Positions 3,688-45,690 of a stretch of 48,662 bases of DNA are shown in pieces. Made by a program: the position numbers and the translations under genes. Below the pieces are notes generated by a model that saw only the letters and a program-made list of their open reading frames with translations, was not told the DNA's origin and ran no database searches. The stretch is from a virus. Its lineage: Duplodnaviria > Heunggongvirae > Uroviricota > Caudoviricetes. The stretch lies in the IMG/VR virus record IMGVR_UViG_2547132418_000015; one strand, written 5' to 3'. The first letter of the stretch is position 1; every line of letters starts with the position of its first letter.

Positions 3688-4808
3688 GGCGGCGTTTTCT
3701 CCGGGTGTCTGCGATAATAATCTTCAACCAGCGCATCAACGCCATCATTACCATCCCCTCTGGATTTGCGGTCGCTTTCAACCGGCACCAGAAAGCCTTC
3801 GCGTGGTGCAAGGCTGACGCGGGTTTTCAGCCCGTCCTGGTCATTCAGTATCAGGGTGACTTTGCTGACCAGTAATTCCGTGGTTTTGATGGCATATTTC
3901 GAGGCATCAATAGTGACCAGCAGGTTTGGCATCCAGAGTTGCCCGTCCTTGCGAGTCCATCCGTCAATTTCAGCCTCAAAGGTGATGGATTTTGCCAGTC
4001 TGCGGCGTTGCTCACGCAGGGCGCGGGCCTGTGCATCCTTCGCCGTAATTTTGCTGTCGGCAATGATGATCATCGGTCTGTAACGGGTTACATCACTGTC
4101 AGTGGCGGTCCCTTTCCGGGAGACGATACTTTTCGCATCAATATCATCACCCTCAGCGCCGTTTGCGCGGGCATAACCCTTGACAATGTATTCGCTGAAC
4201 CGGTCACGGAAATCTTCGTCAAAATCCACCGTCAGCAGATTTTTCCCGAGGATCAGCTCATCAGTGACCGTACTGGCAGCCCGGCTGAATACCAGCTCTC
4301 CGGCGGCATTGCTGGTCATCAGTACACCACGTGCGCGGGAGGCCCGCACCAGCGCTTCGTAAACCGTTTCTGAATGGTCAAGCGTAAAAGACGGAAACGA
4401 CGCTGCGCTTTCCTTGTCTGACAGCTCCCAGCGAACGGTAACGCCATAAGGGGCGCACAGGTCACGCGCAATCTGCTCCAGTGTGCGGTTTTTCCACTGT
4501 CCGCCACTGTAAACGGCAGCACAGTCAATCAGGTCAGCCGTTTTGTCACGTCCGGCGACAGTGATTTTCATACTGTCAGCGGTCATCTGGCGTCGCCGTG
4601 AATCGATATAACCGGTGCAGACAATCTGCCCCCCGATTTCGAGCGTGAACTTCTTCCCCGGAGCCAGCCCGGATAAATCCGTGCCCGGTGGCACGTTCAC
4701 CCCCAGCTCAAAATATCCGGCTACGGATTCAATCGAGCGGGTGACAGAGACTGACGTCCAGCCGGTAAAAAGCCTGCCATCCGTTCGCAGCGTGACGGTA
4801 TTACTCAT
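3675..4808 (-). CDS. Baseplate hub/tail protein (Mu P-like)
   Basis: 377-aa ORF, synteny with Mu P. Confidence 0.75.
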
Positions 4809-37498: not shown

Positions 37499-38476
37499 TT
37501 ATTGACTCAAATTTCTGTCAAGGACCTCGTTGATAGCCTTGTCCAGTTCATCCTGAATCACTTTTGACATACGGCTAAACTCATAAGTCAGCGTACGCCC
37601 TTTCACACGCTTACGCGCGAACTTGTCCTTTTCTTCAAAAGACCAGAGTGGGGAAACCACTGACTTTTCCTTGGGAGATGGATCTATCAATGCCTGAGAT
37701 GCCTGAGAAATCAGCTTCAGTATACTGGCTTTCTGTTCGTCTTCTGGTCGCTCGCCTTCACTCAAAATTGCATCGAGCTGAGCTGATACAGACTGAATGA
37801 GTTCTTCAGGCGTTAATCCCTTTTCACTGAGTTTTTCATTAACTTCTAAAAGAAGTTTATAGTCACTAAACGATAGCTCCGACTGAACCGGGAACAGAGA
37901 AATCAAGTCTTGCGGTACGGCCGCCGCCTGCAGCGCCCTGGTAACTTTAGCTTGAGATAACCCCTCCAGTTCAGCAATTTCCTTTTGATTAAATCCGGAC
38001 TCTTTAAGAGCGATCAATCTCAGGCCAATCTCCCGAAGATTATGTTCTTTAGCTGTCTGGATATCTTTAGCCAGTTGGCGAGCTTCATCAGCTGATAAAT
38101 GCTCTTCGGTAACCATTACATCAAGGCCTGTACGGACAAAAATTGCTGAGGCTCGCCGTCTTGAACCATCCAGTATCTCAATCCTTTCACTTTGCTTAAT
38201 ACCAATACAGGGAAAGAACTGCTGAAACTTAATCGTCTGGATAATGGATTTCAGGGATTCCCTGGTCAGTGCAAGTTGATCTCTTCCGTTGTTTTCCTGG
38301 TTTACGAAGGTCTTACTTTCAACTTCAGATGCAGGCACCCGAACAAACCTGAACGTTACCTTCCTGCCGGTTTTTAAGGTAAATACCTGGCTTCTACCGG
38401 TGTCCGTCATTTCCGCAATTGACGCCTGGGTATTTAACTGTCTGCCGATGGTTTTTCTTTTCTCATTCGACATCAC
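37499..38476 (-). CDS. parB: Partition protein ParB (P1 type)
   Basis: 325-aa ORF with ...IEILDGSRRRASAI... and GLSQAKVTRALQAA motifs. Confidence 0.9.
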   Translation of the reverse strand: MMSNEKRKTIGRQLNTQASIAEMTDTGRSQVFTLKTGRKVTFRFVRVPASEVESKTFVNQENNGRDQLALTRESLKSIIQTIKFQQFFPCIGIKQSERIEILDGSRRRASAIFVRTGLDVMVTEEHLSADEARQLAKDIQTAKEHNLREIGLRLIALKESGFNQKEIAELEGLSQAKVTRALQAAAVPQDLISLFPVQSELSFSDYKLLLEVNEKLSEKGLTPEELIQSVSAQLDAILSEGERPEDEQKASILKLISQASQALIDPSPKEKSVVSPLWSFEEKDKFARKRVKGRTLTYEFSRMSKVIQDELDKAINEVLDRNLSQ

Positions 38477-39678
38477 ATACCTCCGTTAGTACGAATGAAC
38501 TCGATGCGATCAAAGACTGCCTTCGCAAAGTCTTCCGCTGCTGATTTTGCGCTTTTTAGTGCCTCTGTACTTCCATCATAGGTTGCTGGATTTGCTGAAA
38601 TAACTGTGTCAAAAGTCTCCCCACAACGTTCGAAACCATCCAGTCTTGGCAGAACCATGTCTAGCATATCGGCACCGAAAACCTCTTTGGCCTGACTATG
38701 GCAAATTTTGTGATCAGACTTGTTCAGGATCTTGGACATGAAGCCGACATTACCGATGAGATTGCAGGTGTGCCCATCCATTTCGATGGAATCTATGAGG
38801 GCAGGGAGGCTGGCCACAAACTTCAGGGAAGAATGAAAATCAACCGTCGCCGGTGGAAGAGGGGTCAACATCAGGTCTGCCGCCCCAATGCAGTTTTTCA
38901 GGAACGCATCAAGGTGAGGACCACTATCAAGGAAAATAAAGTCGTAGTCATGCTGGAGCTTGTCGATAATGTTCTCTTTAAGCACCGCATGAATATTTTT
39001 CCCTGGCAGATGTTCTTCACACAATCCCTTCCAGCCTTCAGCAAGGAATGCATCGTCAATGGAAGCGGGGATTACATCAACACCAGGGATAATAGACGGT
39101 ACTATAAAATCGGAAAGTAATTCTTCACGAGACACGTTCTGGAGCATGGCCTGAGCAGCCGTATTTTCAACCAAGCCCACTGAATTCTCATGGCTCAGGA
39201 ACATTGTCAGAGATGCCTGCGGATCGAAATCGATGGCCAGAATACGCAGGTCTTCGAACAGAAGCTGAGGATGAGCTCGAAAAGCATGTGATAATGAAGC
39301 GGTAGAAACTGTCTTGGAACCACCACCTTTAAGATTACATACAAAAATCGTAAAGGCTTTATCGAAGCGATCCCTGTACTTCGGTACTTTACGATGGTTA
39401 TACAGATCGATGACATTCTGAATCGTCATCGCGTATTTCATCGTATTACCAGAAGGTTTCTTTTTAAAAATGTAGCCACCGGCTTCCATTTCGGACACAG
39501 CATACTCAACACTGCCTTTACTGAGCTTAGGCAGCTTATACAGAGCGGCTTTGCTGTATTCCTGATAGAACTCGGTAAGCTTCAATTCCTCTTTTTGCTG
39601 TCGGATACTTTCGCTCAAAGATGTCAGAAGCTTACCTGCACGTGTAGCGACTTTCCGTAACTGCTCAATATTGTCCAT
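38473..39678 (-). CDS. parA: Partition ATPase ParA (type Ia, P1 type)
   Basis: 401-aa ORF with deviant Walker A CNLKGGGSKT and an N-terminal DNA-binding extension. Confidence 0.9.
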   Translation of the reverse strand: MDNIEQLRKVATRAGKLLTSLSESIRQQKEELKLTEFYQEYSKAALYKLPKLSKGSVEYAVSEMEAGGYIFKKKPSGNTMKYAMTIQNVIDLYNHRKVPKYRDRFDKAFTIFVCNLKGGGSKTVSTASLSHAFRAHPQLLFEDLRILAIDFDPQASLTMFLSHENSVGLVENTAAQAMLQNVSREELLSDFIVPSIIPGVDVIPASIDDAFLAEGWKGLCEEHLPGKNIHAVLKENIIDKLQHDYDFIFLDSGPHLDAFLKNCIGAADLMLTPLPPATVDFHSSLKFVASLPALIDSIEMDGHTCNLIGNVGFMSKILNKSDHKICHSQAKEVFGADMLDMVLPRLDGFERCGETFDTVISANPATYDGSTEALKSAKSAAEDFAKAVFDRIEFIRTNGGM

Positions 39679-39730: not shown

Positions 39731-40070
39731 AGAAAAAAAATCATATTGTTTTGATTTCGCTCTCAACAGAAGGGGGATGAAGCTCGACGGGCGTGCTACT
39801 AAATCACACTGCAGCAACACGCAGACGCACTTTTGACCATCAACAGCAACTCATACAAAAGGGCTTTGAGAAAGGTATTCAACTTGCAAGACAGGAGAGT
39901 CATTCAGAAGGATTCTGATTTTAGTTACGACCAGTGCAATGCTGAGCCTTATGTATCAGCGCTCGCCGCAGCCATGTAACCGAGCGTAGCGAGCGAACTG
40001 GCGAGGAAGCGAAGAGGAACCGTTCCGGCAGATAGCTCTTACGCTCAGCACAAGAAGAGTTTTCCATCCT

Positions 40071-40565
40071 CTGTGGGAAACAGGTCAACTTTAATGGACG
40101 CTCCGGACTATGGGAAACAGGTCAACTTCGCGGACGGCCCGGACTATGGGAAACAGGTCAACTTCACGGGCGGCCGGGAGTGTGGGGAACAGGTCAACTT
40201 CGCGGACGGCCCGGACTATGGGAAACAGGTCAACTTCACGGGCGGCCGGGAGTGTGGGGAACAGGTCAACTTCGCGGACGGCCCGGATTATGGGAAACAG
40301 GTCAACTTCGCGGGCGGCCGGGACTGTGGGAAACAGGTCAACTTTGCAGACGGCCCGGACTGTGGGAAACAGGTCAACTTCGCGGGCGGCCGGGAGTGTG
40401 GGGAACAGGTCAACTTCGCGGACGGCCCGGACTAAGGGAAACAGGTCAGCTTCTCGGACGGCCCGGACTATGGGAAACAGGTCAACTTCTCGGACGGTCG
40501 GGAGTGTGGGAAACAGGTCAAGTTAGGCAAGCACTATGGGAAACACAGCAAGTTCAGTATCCCCC
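40071..40565. repeat. Array of 13 direct 36-bp iterons plus one degenerate unit, downstream of rep
   Basis: Unit TGGGAAACAGGTCAACTTCGCGGACGGCCCGGACTA repeated at 36-37-bp period. Confidence 0.9.
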
Positions 40566-40611
40566 CATATGTCAGCAACAAACTAAGGGGGGAGGAAATA
40601 AAAATTACAGA

Positions 40612-41334
40612 CTATTGTTTTTTATCAAGAAAATTAAACAGCAAGCGACCATCTTCTTCAGTGGTATATGTTACCTTTAATGGCGTCTTCTCATTAATTT
40701 TCTTCAGAGCAGGTTCCAGGAAGGTACGCTTCATTTCAGCAATATTGTTTTTCTGCGAGGCAGGGAGCATAAACCTTTCACATAACCAGTCATGTGTGGT
40801 GATCCAGACACCAGTGCTCCGGAACTGACACAGGCTTTCATAAAGCCGGATGACACGAACACTATTAAGCTGGCCACAGTCATAGAGAGAATAGGTAGTG
40901 AACTGGGAGGTTAAGCCGACCAGGAATGGCATGACCTTGTAGTTAAATTCAATCTGCCAGGAACCCCGGCCTCGCTTCATTCCTGCTTCAGCCAGCCACG
41001 GACGTTTAACTTCTTCAAACTCACCTTCTTTTGGATAAAAGGTAACCGTTGATTCGCCCAGAGCATTTACCCCAGCCTTCACATCACGACTGGCGACAGA
41101 CGTAGCGACATTGAAGTATTTGACGTAATCGGAAACGCTGATTTTGAAGAGCGGCAATACGTCAGAGTCATCTTCCTGGCTGTCATTAAAATAGGCCTGC
41201 ATGAGGCATAACCACAGCACACGTTTTGCCTGAAGAGGCAGGTAATATGCAGCTTCGGTCAATTCGTTAGATTGCTTTATACTGGCGCGTTTTTTAAACG
41301 TTTTAGTAGCTGGCAAGAGTGCTTGAGTATCCAT
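40612..41334 (-). CDS. rep: Rep_3/RepE-family replication initiator
   Basis: ORF 40612..41493; start placed at ATG 41334 (MDTQALLPATKTFKKRASIKQSNELTEAAYYL...) because upstream codons overlap origin iterons; RLYESLCQFR motif. Confidence 0.82.
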   Translation of the reverse strand: MDTQALLPATKTFKKRASIKQSNELTEAAYYLPLQAKRVLWLCLMQAYFNDSQEDDSDVLPLFKISVSDYVKYFNVATSVASRDVKAGVNALGESTVTFYPKEGEFEEVKRPWLAEAGMKRGRGSWQIEFNYKVMPFLVGLTSQFTTYSLYDCGQLNSVRVIRLYESLCQFRSTGVWITTHDWLCERFMLPASQKNNIAEMKRTFLEPALKKINEKTPLKVTYTTEEDGRLLFNFLDKKQ

Positions 41335-41399
41335 TTCAATGCCTATGGGTAAATTTTTACCCACCCATAATGACAGTGAAAACAGAAATTGCAAGCTAT

Positions 41400-41690
41400 C
41401 GCGATACTTATCCACCGGAAAAATCTGCACTTTATCCACAAGTGGATAATTGAGAACTGAACTTGACCTCTTTCCCATAGCTTGTTGATGCATATCCCAT
41501 AGCTTGTTGACACAAAACCCACTGATACGTGATTAATTTCCCATATTATGTTTACCAGTTGCCCATACAGGCCCCCTCTCAGGCCGCACTGTACGCGGCT
41601 TTCAGGCTCCCTAAAAGATGTAAAATAAAGAAAAAGAATAAAAAAGTACTTTATAAAAATATGCCCGTGGATAAGTGGATAACCCCGAGG
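41400..41690. other. Vegetative replication origin: DnaA boxes, four spaced iteron cores, AT-rich segment
   Basis: TTATCCACAAGTGGATAA (41433-41450), GTGGATAAGTGGATAA (41666-41681), CCCATA cores at about 41475, 41497, 41541, 41563, AT-rich 41600-41660. Confidence 0.7.
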
Positions 41691-42025
41691 GGAGGTGATT
41701 TTTCAGGCATTGAGCGTAAGCAGAATTTATAAGTTTTGTTCCCTGGTGCTTCCTCGCTCACTCGGGGCTTCGCCCTGTCGCTCGACTGCGGCGAGCACTG
41801 CTGGCTCGATCATATCCGTGGCCGGAAGATACTACTCCTCCCCCGAGTCGCTCTCCAGAGCCGGCTACAGCGAGACAACCCGCACGAAGATTTCTATCGT
41901 CCCTGCAGACATATTCGAATCGTTTTTATTAACCCTGGCTTCCGTCGTGACAGAACACTACGTCCTGTAAAAGGGGGACTAAGGCCCCTGAATCACACAC
42001 CTGAATAATGCGGAGTTTTACGATA

Positions 42026-42112
42026 ATGTCATTGCTGGAAACTTTCCTGACCGCTTCTCAGGGGGCAACAATCCTGTTCCTTGCCATGCTGATTTACTGG
42101 CAAAAGCGATAA
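42026..42112 (+). CDS. Possible 28-aa hydrophobic peptide
   Basis: MSLLETFLTASQGATILFLAMLIYWQKR with GGAG upstream, followed by palindrome GCTGGCCTTTGGCCAGC; not in the ORF track. Confidence 0.25.
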   Translation: MSLLETFLTASQGATILFLAMLIYWQKR

Positions 42113-42240
42113 ATCCAAGCGGGCTGGCCTTTGGCCAGCTTCGCTGTATAAGGGGAAAAATGCGGCATATCCAGACATTTCACTAGGCAATTTGAATTCA
42201 GATATCTATGCTTGGGATCCGGTCAACAGGAGGTAACAAG

Positions 42241-42498
42241 ATGAAACTTGAAACTATACAGATAGATAATACCGTAAGGAGTGGTCTTAATTCTTTCACT
42301 GACGGGGTGATTATTCGTGATACAAAGGTATTGATCACGCTCAATCTCCCGGATGGACAGAAAACCACTATTGAGGGGGAATGGCGGCATATGTCGGACG
42401 CCAACAGGTTGTCAGAACGTATTACGATGCTTCAGCATGCGATCTATGAGCAGTATGAAGAATACAGAGCAGATATTCCCGTCAGCTGGTCCAGATAA
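42241..42498 (+). CDS. Hypothetical 85-aa protein
   Basis: ORF 42208..42498; ATG at 42241 (MKLETIQIDNTVRSG...) with AGGAGG ribosome-binding site. Confidence 0.55.
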   Translation: MKLETIQIDNTVRSGLNSFTDGVIIRDTKVLITLNLPDGQKTTIEGEWRHMSDANRLSERITMLQHAIYEQYEEYRADIPVSWSR

Positions 42499-42555
42499 CG
42501 TCTGACAGACCTCCCCGGCGAGCAGGACGTTCGCCAGCATCATTCTCCTAAGTAC

Positions 42556-43332
42556 TTAAATATTCCCTTTCAGCATGGCTACCGCATCCGCTTCGGGCAT
42601 CTGAAACTGAACTCGATGCCGCGCAGCAACATCAAGTGCGAACACCTTCGTATAGACTTCCGTCGAGCTAATCGATTTGTGGCCCATCAGGCTCTGCAAA
42701 ACCTTCAGTGGTATGCCGGCATACAGCATATGCATCGCGTAGGAGTGGCGGAACGTATGCGGGGTGACCGGCACCGAGAATGTCCCCCCGTCGACGGCGG
42801 CCGCTTCAACCGCTTCGCCAATCCAGGTCCGTACTGTCCGGTCGGTGATGTCCCAGATGCGGGCTTTCTCTGTTCTGCCGGTACGCTTGTTGCGTCTTTC
42901 CAGCGGAATTTTCAGGGTGGCCACCATCATCTGCAGCTGGCTGACGTAGTGGTGATCGGAAAGCGGAACCAGACGATGAGCCTGGCTACCGGCGGGAGCT
43001 CGGCCGGCTGTCCTGGCCGCTTTTTCGGTGCGCTGCTTAAGCGTGGCCAGCTGCACGAACGGATACGGTGGCACCAGCGAAAAATCCCCCCGGGTCAGCG
43101 CCAGCGCCTCGTTGATACGTGCGCCGGTGTTCCAGAGGGTTGCCAGCAGCATCTTGCGGTGCAAATCGGGCACATAATGGAGCAGGGCGCTGACTTCCGG
43201 TGCCAGCAGGTATTTCGGTAGTTCATCTTGAACGAGCGCCATCTGGCGCAGGGCCAGCGCGGCGGGATAGTCAATGGCCACCGGCATTTGCGCCGGCTGC
43301 TGCGGGTGAGAATATGATAAGAGGCCGCTCAT
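42556..43332 (-). CDS. Tyrosine site-specific recombinase, likely plasmid multimer resolvase
   Basis: 258-aa ORF with ...HTFRHSYAMHMLYAGIPLKVLQSLMGHKSISSTEVYTKV... (R-H-R-Y active-site pattern). Confidence 0.85.
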   Translation of the reverse strand: MSGLLSYSHPQQPAQMPVAIDYPAALALRQMALVQDELPKYLLAPEVSALLHYVPDLHRKMLLATLWNTGARINEALALTRGDFSLVPPYPFVQLATLKQRTEKAARTAGRAPAGSQAHRLVPLSDHHYVSQLQMMVATLKIPLERRNKRTGRTEKARIWDITDRTVRTWIGEAVEAAAVDGGTFSVPVTPHTFRHSYAMHMLYAGIPLKVLQSLMGHKSISSTEVYTKVFALDVAARHRVQFQMPEADAVAMLKGNI

Positions 43333-44072
43333 TGGTTTGACATTCCATCAGGTATCACTAATTGATTCCACTCCCTGTTGCGGGTAGCTTCAGCAGCGCG
43401 CAGGGCTCTTTCGCGCCTCCAGACTTTACGAAACACGGAAACTGCAGACCATTCATCATGACCTGTAAGACGTGTTTCGGGCATCCCGGTTGCCTTGCGC
43501 AGACGGACGGCAAGAATGACAGCGTTGATGCCCAAGCGCGTGAACTGATACTGCCGTTCCCTGAAATAGTCCTTATGCCAAGGAGGGTCGGAGTATTCGG
43601 CGGCATATGCAATTGCCCTGTGGGCCTCATCCTGGAGCACCGGCAGTTCACGGATGCGATACATAAGACGTGGCTCTAAAGTCCGCCAGTCACCGGAGAC
43701 ATCGATCAGATTCAGTTCAGGGTAATTCGTGACAGCTTTTCTCTCAGGCTGGGGGGCATCATCATCCTGGCCGTCATCCGTCACAACCCGGAAACAACCC
43801 TCAGCATACCGTTCAAGCATGAATACCAACTCGGTGGCAATGTAATGCAGTTCCTTTTTCATTTTATCTTCTGACGCCTGTCTCTCACGCTTAAGCGTGA
43901 AATAATGTGTCAGCCAGATGCCAGTGAGTGTTATACCCCCAGTAAGCAGGCCAGTGATAAGCCCGGTTGCCACGTTTCCCCAGATCCCCGCCCCTTGATT
44001 AATCAGCTGTACGGAAACCGGATGGGATGTCGCAGCAACTATACTCTCAGTTGCGGCCTGTATATCAGTCAT
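43329..44072 (-). CDS. Hypothetical membrane-anchored protein, stop overlaps the recombinase start
   Basis: 247-aa ORF with N-terminal hydrophobic segment GNVATGLITGLLTGGITLTGIWLTHYF; 4-nt overlap with 42556..43332. Confidence 0.6.
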   Translation of the reverse strand: MTDIQAATESIVAATSHPVSVQLINQGAGIWGNVATGLITGLLTGGITLTGIWLTHYFTLKRERQASEDKMKKELHYIATELVFMLERYAEGCFRVVTDDGQDDDAPQPERKAVTNYPELNLIDVSGDWRTLEPRLMYRIRELPVLQDEAHRAIAYAAEYSDPPWHKDYFRERQYQFTRLGINAVILAVRLRKATGMPETRLTGHDEWSAVSVFRKVWRRERALRAAEATRNREWNQLVIPDGMSNQ

Positions 44073-44585: not shown

Positions 44586-44879
44586 TAAAATAATAAGCAG
44601 CCATATAACAACGTAATTAAATTACCTGACGGCCGCTCTGGCCGGATCCGACTTTTATGTTATTCCACAGTTTCCGGAAGTGTACCACGCACACGGAATA
44701 ACCACAGCGCCCTTTCAGGGTGGTGAGCGGCCGGTCACGGGGCAGGGGAGGGACACAACATATATGGTCACTGACAGCTGGAAACACCGCTACATCTTGT
44801 GTTTCCGGGCCGCTGCGCGCCGGCGGGGCTGAATCAGATCCGGAACTGCCTTTTTTCGGATCTGAGCGGGAAAAGTGAG

Positions 44880-45046: not shown

Positions 45047-45277
45047 ATGCGCACAGTTTCGATATTTAAAAACGGCAATAACCGCGCCATCCGTCTGCCC
45101 CGGGACCTGGATTTTGACGGCGTCAGCGAGCTGGAGATCGTCCGGGAAGGGGACAGCATCATTCTGCGTCCCGTCCGGCCGACCTGGGGCTCGTTCGCGC
45201 AGCTGGACAGGGCCGATCCGGACTTTATGGCGGAGCGTGAGGATGTGGTCAGCGATGAAGGACGTTTTGAGCCATGA
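45047..45277 (+). CDS. vapB: VapB-type antitoxin (AbrB/SpoVT fold)
   Basis: 76-aa MRTVSIFKNGNNRAIRLPRDLDFDGVSELEIVREGDSIILRPV...; stop overlaps the vapC start. Confidence 0.85.
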   Translation: MRTVSIFKNGNNRAIRLPRDLDFDGVSELEIVREGDSIILRPVRPTWGSFAQLDRADPDFMAEREDVVSDEGRFEP

Positions 45278-45690
45278 AGAAAACCTGGATGCTCGATACT
45301 AACATCTGCTCGTTCATCATGCGCGAGCAGCCGGCAGCGGTGCTGAAGCGCCTGGAGCAGGCGGTGCTGCGCGGTGATCGCATCGTGGTCTCGGCCGTGA
45401 CATATGCCGAGATGCGCTTCGGCGCCACCGGCCCGAAGGCCTCGCCGCGCCATATTCAGCTGGTCGACGCGTTCTGCGCGCGCCTCGATGCCGTCCTGCC
45501 CTGGGACCGCGCCGCGGTGGACGCCACGACGGACATCCGGGTGGCGCTGCGCCTAGCCGGGACGCCGATCGGCCCGAATGACACGGCCATTGCCGGGCAC
45601 GCCATCGCGGCGGGCGCCATCCTGGTGACGAACAATGTGAGAGAGTTTGCGCGGGTCCCGGGCCTGGTGCTGGAAGACTGGGTGAAATAA
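45274..45690 (+). CDS. vapC: VapC-type PIN-domain toxin
   Basis: 138-aa MKKTWMLDTNICSFIMREQ... with conserved acidic residues. Confidence 0.85.
   Translation: MKKTWMLDTNICSFIMREQPAAVLKRLEQAVLRGDRIVVSAVTYAEMRFGATGPKASPRHIQLVDAFCARLDAVLPWDRAAVDATTDIRVALRLAGTPIGPNDTAIAGHAIAAGAILVTNNVREFARVPGLVLEDWVK

Follow-up and report, generated by a model that had tools for sequence, protein, structure and literature searches.

The segment at positions 42026–42498 of the window (the whole stretch of DNA that was analysed, 48,662 nucleotides long) is best read, with moderate confidence, as two independent and non-essential accessory genes: one for a membrane peptide, with a trailing stem-loop, and one for a soluble protein that is carried as a single-gene cassette. 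In plasmids of the IncR and IncFIA(HI1) types, both would occupy a cargo position that has the vegetative origin on one side and the 3′ end of resD on the other. The smaller gene would use the ATG at 42026 as its start codon and yield a peptide of 28 to 31 residues, the hydrophobic C-terminal half of which (GATILFLAMLIYW) would enter the inner membrane, with a basic QKR tail that is predicted to stay in the cytoplasm. The larger one, of 85 codons, would be an autonomous cassette, having a ribosome-binding site and an upstream region of its own and encoding a small cytoplasmic alpha/beta protein that would bind another protein, either a host factor or a factor of a competing element, in the manner of anti-defence or moron-type genes. 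An earlier note on this DNA had presented the two open reading frames (ORFs) as a pair of uncharacterised genes. Both are indeed uncharacterised and probably real genes, but the implied pairing does not hold, as the 85-codon gene is found alone in divergent contexts.

Plasmid setting and comparison with F

A megablast search with 41500–42560 matched 4,288 plasmid records, 1,563 of which cover at least 80% of the query. Most of these latter records come from Klebsiella and E. coli, and a match of 100% was obtained with several IncR plasmids. By its gene order and these matches the window is evidently the backbone of an IncR-type resistance plasmid, arranged as parAB, 36-bp iterons, repB, ori, the two-ORF segment, resD and vapBC. 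On the minus strand, parA is found at 38473–39678 and repB, which encodes a Rep3-family initiator, at 40612–41493, with the array of 36-bp iterons at 40024–40596; origin iterons occupy 41458–41555 and are followed by an AT-rich stretch. On the other side, a gene for a ResD-like tyrosine recombinase (42556–43332, minus strand) converges on the segment, and is separated by two more minus-strand ORFs from the vapBC addiction module at 45047–45690. The two ORFs are therefore located as had been claimed for them, between an origin and a recombinase, with the RepB origin on one side and the ResD-like gene on the other.

The ori2–resD region of the F plasmid (RepFIA) shows the same synteny of addiction module, resD, segment, ori, rep and par. 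The recombinase is ∼91% identical to F ResD (tblastn), with the resD genes 80% identical at the DNA level, and there is 72% homology over 41631–42028 with further blocks up to 42181. A blockwise alignment matches F to 42004–42070, where an indel of 8 nt shifts the reading frame, and to 42134–42181. F has nothing that corresponds to 42071–42133, the stretch with the hydrophobic core of the small ORF and the hairpin's 5′ arm, and is also devoid of the entire 85-codon gene. F has an ORF of its own at the position of the small ORF, 35 codons long, that is not hydrophobic. The simplest reading of this alignment is that F keeps a decayed, frame-shifted remnant of the small ORF. Both genes are accordingly dispensable accessories, and F shows that replication and resolution can do without them.

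The small ORF and its product

The small ORF, as read from the sequence, runs on the plus strand from an ATG at 42026 to a stop codon at 42110–42112 (42026–42112, 28 codons plus stop). Its product, MSLLETFLTASQGATILFLAMLIYWQKR, has 28 amino acids and is hydrophobic (GRAVY 0.76), in line with the description of this ORF in the earlier note. In most relatives the ORF has 31 codons, and the forms of 28–31 amino acids range in GRAVY from 0.67 to 0.76. With an 11-residue window, the hydropathy maximum (2.5) falls on ILFLAMLIYW; QKR comes next, which gives the peptide a C-terminus of W-QKR. The hydrophobic core is short, at ∼13–19 residues. The product is probably a single-pass membrane peptide, and it is from these features that we infer membrane insertion.

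RefSeq/PGAP already annotates the small ORF as a hypothetical protein (WP_032409716.1), but with 34 amino acids and a start at an upstream ATG at 42008. The start at 42026 is better supported, because a possible Shine-Dalgarno sequence, GGAG (42012–42015, plus strand), precedes it by 10 nt, because the start at 42008 is without a Shine-Dalgarno sequence, because the two variable sites in the extension (42008–42025) are both non-synonymous in that frame, and because of the upstream DNA of one metagenomic relative (L098, ∼4760–4790). In this relative, unrelated DNA is found upstream of 42017, that is, from 9 nt before the ATG; the replacement removes both the GGAG and the ATG at 42008, and leaves the 28-codon ORF intact. 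The GGAG is kept in all other haplotypes. The gap of 10 nt between GGAG and ATG is long, and a predicted fold (a prediction only) pairs the GGAG with UUCC in codons 7–8. A promoter scan found no convincing sigma-70 promoter for either of the two ORFs.

Evidence for coding

A 7-kb stretch at this place is overlapped by 105 ORFs of at least 20 amino acids. With short ORFs at such a chance level, the bare existence of a 28-codon ORF is uninformative, and the case must rest on its relatives. What goes beyond chance is the pattern of substitutions among them. Across 26 haplotypes drawn from 87 loci there are 24 substitutions, 14 of them at codon position 3 and synonymous and 10 non-synonymous, corresponding to an omega of ∼0.25 and a binomial P of 0.0007 (∼0.01 if transition bias is allowed for); these events were counted against the reference and not on a tree, and the haplotypes, coming from closely related and recombining plasmids, are not independent. 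No bias in codon phase is seen in the two other sense frames or in two antisense frames, and the co-phased antisense frame, which shares third positions with the small ORF, is closed by stops. A 9-bp indel at 42051–42059, which duplicates CCGCTTCTC and is the only one that is frequent in the population, is in frame, and an A-to-G change found in five haplotypes adds an in-frame ATG (Met) and does not break the frame. The ORF is open in 85 of the 87 loci; the remaining two, both singletons (L016 and L096), have frame-breaking deletions of 1 nt. RNAalifold, run across the small ORF, gave a covariation term of +0.51 without a single compensatory pair, and RNA structure thus does not explain the variable sites. 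Taken as comparative evidence, this pattern places the small ORF under coding constraint: it is probably translated, with selection acting on the sequence of the peptide. ORFs on the minus strand (42029–42190, 42198–42404 and others) were also considered as candidates and rejected; in 42029–42190 the substitutions fall on codon position 1.

There is an unlikely alternative, in which the small ORF is untranslated and open by chance, and the whole of 42004–42146, including the palindrome behind the ORF, is a non-coding RNA flanking the origin or a stretch of protein-binding DNA. The first ∼45 nt of the small ORF are kept by F in a different frame, which on this reading means that this part is conserved for non-coding reasons. 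The 3′ half (42042–42101) shows next to no variation, most synonymous sites included, and together with 41742–41816 it is one of the two most conserved stretches within 41622–42600; this near-invariance could reflect a constraint at the nucleic acid level instead of, or besides, coding. The perfect 7-bp palindrome could bind a dimeric protein, and the lack of a promoter in the scan, the long Shine-Dalgarno spacing and the frameshifts in two loci all point in the same direction. A non-coding element would, however, leave several observations without an explanation: the bias towards position 3 and synonymous changes is specific to the frame of the small ORF, with stops in the co-phased antisense frame, the 9-bp indel and the extra ATG are both in frame, and RNA pairing offers no account of the variable sites. 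There is also no matching Rfam family, as a search with 39800–43400 at E <= 10 returned only two chance hits to eukaryotic families.

As a gene, it has a limited range. The DNA of the small ORF was found in 1,773 plasmid records, all but one of them at least 80% identical, and in none of them in a different setting. A degenerate-codon scan of 185,579 species genomes (one per species) found 11 loci, ten of which are the same plasmid segment and one a chance match. The small ORF is evidently confined to a narrow plasmid lineage.

The stem-loop

The palindromic hairpin that had been reported behind the 28-codon ORF is present at 42118–42145, and begins 5 nt after the stop codon. It is a GC-rich stem-loop with 12 pairs, one bulge and a TTT loop, with the core GCTGGCC-TTT-GGCCAGC. 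The folding energy is −20.5 kcal/mol for the plus strand and −17.9 for the minus strand, with a z-score of −1.9, and 10 out of 200 shuffled sequences fold as well. No haplotype departs from the 7-bp core, some have broken basal pairs, and covariation analysis found 0 compensatory pairs. A stable GC-rich hairpin directly after a stop codon is a feature shared with intrinsic (Rho-independent) terminators, but unlike these the stem-loop has no U-run on its 3′ side on the plus strand, where the sequence continues with UGUAUAAGGGG and no U-tract. The minus strand has only an interrupted T-rich tail (TTGGATTTAT), and a terminator scan of 41400–42700 found 0 terminator-like sites. As we read it, the stem-loop would most likely define or stabilise the 3′ end of a short transcript of the small ORF, or else serve as a barrier that stops transcription from reading through between the origin and the resD operon that converges on it.

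The palindrome was also considered as the recombination site of ResD, and rejected, as the stretch that resembles the pifC–ccdA region of F maps to 44644–44690, on the other side of the resD operon. Its 48 nt share 81% identity with a part of the pifC–ccdA intergenic region of F, on the opposite strand, and rfsF, the target of ResD, is likely to lie here, between the resD operon and vapBC. In IncR plasmids, rfsF has been placed between resD and vagCD (PMC9412624), in agreement with the location at 44644–44690.

Resemblance to type I toxins

The small peptide had also been said to resemble type I toxins. This is true for size and hydrophobicity, but searches turned up none of the other hallmarks, namely an antisense RNA, a conserved antisense promoter or membership in a toxin family. 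Hok/Gef, Ldr, TisB, Ibs, ShoB, Zor and DinQ have in common with the product of the small ORF a length below 40 amino acids, a single hydrophobic helix and an aromatic and basic C-terminus, and a plasmid-borne location adjoining maintenance functions is likewise shared with enterobacterial type I toxins. In contrast to them, the small ORF matches none of these families, and no antisense gene or conserved antisense promoter was found for it. The statement that the peptide matches no known family is correct for Pfam (E <= 10) and NCBIfam (E <= 1), which gave 0 families, those of toxins (Hok/Gef, Ldr, TisB, Ibs, Fst and others) included, for each of the forms of 28, 34 and 37 amino acids.

It is improbable, considering all of this, that the small ORF encodes the toxin part of a novel plasmid-borne type I toxin-antitoxin system that acts by post-segregational killing, with an antisense RNA from the minus strand near the start codon as the antitoxin. 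The size, the hydrophobic helix and the C-terminal tryptophan with basic residues would be typical of such a toxin, and so would an mRNA fold that sequesters the GGAG, as predicted here, and the very strong conservation of the 3′ half at the nucleotide level. In the search for an antisense RNA there was no Rfam match, no conserved promoter on the minus strand and no complement elsewhere in the window (no complementary stretch longer than 11 nt). The sole promoter-like site on the minus strand, ATGACA-16-CATTAT at 42032–42005 (9/12), does overlap the start codon, but its −35 box is not conserved across haplotypes (TGTCAT changes to TGACCT or TGCCAT), and the RNA predicted from it is only ∼35 nt long and would lie clear of the coding region. 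On the minus strand there is also, at ∼41965–41990, a short GC hairpin with TTTT behind it, but it folds no better than shuffled sequences (z = −0.5). The absence of covariation, and the fact that the plasmid already carries vapBC as an addiction module, also argue against a toxin.

Non-toxic small membrane proteins such as AcrZ and MgtS modulate membrane proteins. The product of the small ORF is similar to these in its size, its single predicted membrane helix and the purifying selection on the peptide; it differs from them in having no homology or known partner, and in being encoded on a plasmid and not on a chromosome.

The 85-codon gene

The second ORF has 85 codons and is located on the plus strand at 42241–42498. 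The strong ribosome-binding site that had been noticed in front of it is there, an AGGAGG at 42228–42233, 7 nt before the ATG at 42241, and is weakened to ATGAGG in lineages with 78–82% identity. RefSeq lists the product as a hypothetical protein (WP_000764642.1). The upstream region and 5′ UTR of the gene (42147–42240, plus strand) are shared with one of the more divergent loci, L014, and include a putative weak promoter, TAGGCA-17-TATGCT (42183–42211, plus strand), which has 8/12 matches to the consensus and is below the threshold of the promoter scan. A longer form of 96 amino acids starting at 42208 was considered and rejected: distant homologues begin with MKLE or MRLE, have their own Shine-Dalgarno sequence, and share nothing upstream of it.

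In a search of 5.8 billion proteins, 68 relatives of the 85-residue protein were found, ∼40 of them full length, with identities down to 68%, and all of them from Enterobacterales or from plasmids. When a profile was run against 1.84 billion cluster representatives, the only additions were two full-length clusters that are more distant, with 54–55% identity. Over the range of 54–98% identity the homologues keep 83–85 codons, and the blocks TLNLPDG, EGEWRH and MLQHAIYE are invariant. In comparisons with the Serratia and Enterobacter copies (Nei-Gojobori method), dS is 0.75–0.85 and dN 0.17–0.20, which corresponds to an omega of 0.23–0.24. Omega is 0.23–0.3 against the distant homologues L009 and L010, and 0.55–1.1 among close variants; a raised omega among close variants is common in conflict-type accessory genes. 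Judged by this conservation, the ORF is clearly a real gene under coding constraint.

The AF2 model of the protein is confident (pLDDT 84, pTM 0.72) and shows a helix followed by a sheet of three strands and then by a long helix. The product is predicted to be a soluble, slightly acidic alpha-beta3-alpha protein. Profile searches with it led to a single family, phrog_31850, which is without a function: the protein matches with E = 1.9e-61, residues 1–85 aligning to positions 1–85 of the 85 in the profile, and together with its homologues of 54–68% identity the matches are full length with E-values from 1.9e-61 to 4e-25. The family has no annotation in PHROGs (unknown function). Because no copy of the gene was found in 50,697 GenBank phage records, the members of phrog_31850 probably come from prophage-like or plasmid sequences. 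There is no match to Pfam, NCBIfam or PADLOC, no convincing fold match, and no signature of an enzyme or of DNA binding. We infer that the protein most plausibly works by protein binding, and by analogy with anti-defence and moron-type genes our guess for its target would be a factor of the host or of another element.

UniRef names one variant as DUF1795, a DcrB/Eag-type label. This candidate was rejected, since no match to the Pfam profile or to a solved member was found and the label could not be reproduced. With it fell the lead to Eag chaperones, which would have linked a chaperone of membrane helices to the hydrophobic peptide.

Some further observations concern the expression of the gene. 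Just upstream of the AGGAGG, the iteron-like sequence GGGATCCGGTCAAC (42214–42227) has 12/14 matches to the core of the 36-bp iterons, with two mismatches. It was rejected as a RepB site controlling the 85-codon gene and is probably a coincidence, because a window is expected to hold 0.64 such matches by chance and because it is not conserved in relatives, which have a T-to-A change. The two most distant homologues (L116 2575–2615 and L028 4950–4990) have a common upstream motif, GGTATGATCAT(A/G)CATCCAGTA(C/T)A-AAT, which holds the palindrome ATGATCAT with a GATC site and adjoins a −10 box of good quality. The arrangement points to a regulated promoter that is conserved and of which the IncR copy would keep only a weak form (CATATCCAGACATTTCAC, 42166–42183). 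In plasmids of the pBK30661 type (L003 3766–3768 and L031 825–827), the ORF has ATA in place of the ATG. The gene may be silenced or poorly translated in this lineage; RefSeq still annotates the ORF there as a full CDS (WP_032408936.1).

Independence of the two ORFs

Homology to the distant copies of the 85-codon gene starts at 42223–42230, at the ribosome-binding site, and ends at ∼42537–42549. These limits indicate that the unit is the 85-codon gene alone. In L014 homology starts at 42147, just past the stem-loop. The gene is found in at least five different gene neighbourhoods. In all copies with at least 78% identity it is next to resD; in others it is found with stbAB and umuDC, with ArdC, PcfJ, a Dam-type methyltransferase and an RHH protein, or with a 403-aa integrase on viral or satellite-like contigs (metagenomic and IMG/VR). 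There is no consistent partner gene across these neighbourhoods. The small ORF and the stem-loop are absent upstream of the gene in six divergent loci (L009, L010, L014, L026, L028 and L116), the upstream DNA differs in each of them, and none of the divergent loci has a hydrophobic ORF that replaces the small ORF. An operon or functional pair of the two ORFs was rejected on the basis of this distribution, and they are evidently independent in evolution.

The layout of an ORF, a 5-nt gap, a hairpin and a gene on the same strand, with no strong promoter in between and with the three elements nearly always together in the lineage of 78–100% identity, might also suggest that the small ORF encodes a leader peptide, such that a ribosome at its stop codon would melt the hairpin and control read-through into the 85-codon gene in an attenuation-like manner, but this is very improbable given that the hairpin has no U-tract, that the 85-codon gene does without both small ORF and hairpin in the six divergent loci, that selection on a whole peptide including a membrane-type helix would be unusual for a leader, and that no alternative (anti-terminator) pairing or covariation was seen.

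Occurrence and possible significance

The segment with both ORFs is present in ∼1,800–2,000 sequenced plasmids from Klebsiella, E. coli, Enterobacter and Salmonella, and the carriers include IncR, IncFIA(HI1) and multi-replicon carbapenemase plasmids. In the literature there is no paper on WP_032409716.1 or WP_000764642.1, or on the small ORF or a toxin at this location; work on the IncR backbone names only repB, parAB, umuCD, retA, resD and vagCD, and mentions neither ORF. Should the small peptide be translated and act on the membrane, or should the 85-residue protein modulate a host or defence factor, the stability of the plasmid or its fitness cost in clinical strains could change. A far-reaching version of this, which we regard as quite doubtful, is that the small ORF founds a new family of membrane-active plasmid peptides beside the vegetative origin (a type I-like addiction toxin or an exclusion peptide) of which F keeps a relic, and that the 85-codon gene is a single-gene cassette, moving between plasmids, satellites and prophage-like islands, for a new protein-binding factor that would be anti-defence or host-modulating. 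On present evidence, both are ordinary conserved hypothetical accessory genes.

Other features of the replicon

Three overlapping ORFs on the plus strand at 40073–40680 (120, 138 and 166 amino acids) have repetitive translations. They are artefacts of the 36-bp iteron array being read in three frames, and not genes. Directly upstream of resD, and overlapping it, there is an ORF for 247 amino acids on the minus strand (43329–44072), which apparently forms an operon with resD. Its product matches the PADLOC phage-defence candidate PDC-S67 with E = 3.6e-45, and is without a Pfam or NCBIfam family. In some related plasmids the same position is occupied by a different protein of ∼35% identity, or by an unrelated gene.

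The most conserved part of the region flanking the origin is a segment of ∼60–75 nt at 41742–41816 (GCTTCCTCGCTCACTCGGGGCTTCGCCCTGTCGCTCGACTGCGGCGAGCACTG), with 0–2 variable sites per 30 nt. The segment is also present in F. It has an inverted partner, 74% complementary, at 39957–39990 on the far side of the replicon, and a copy with 90% identity is located downstream of umuC in an unrelated Enterobacter plasmid (L010 6390–6451). It may resemble the PriA-dependent primosome assembly (n′/ssi) site of pBR322/ColE1 and the one reported near ori2 of mini-F.
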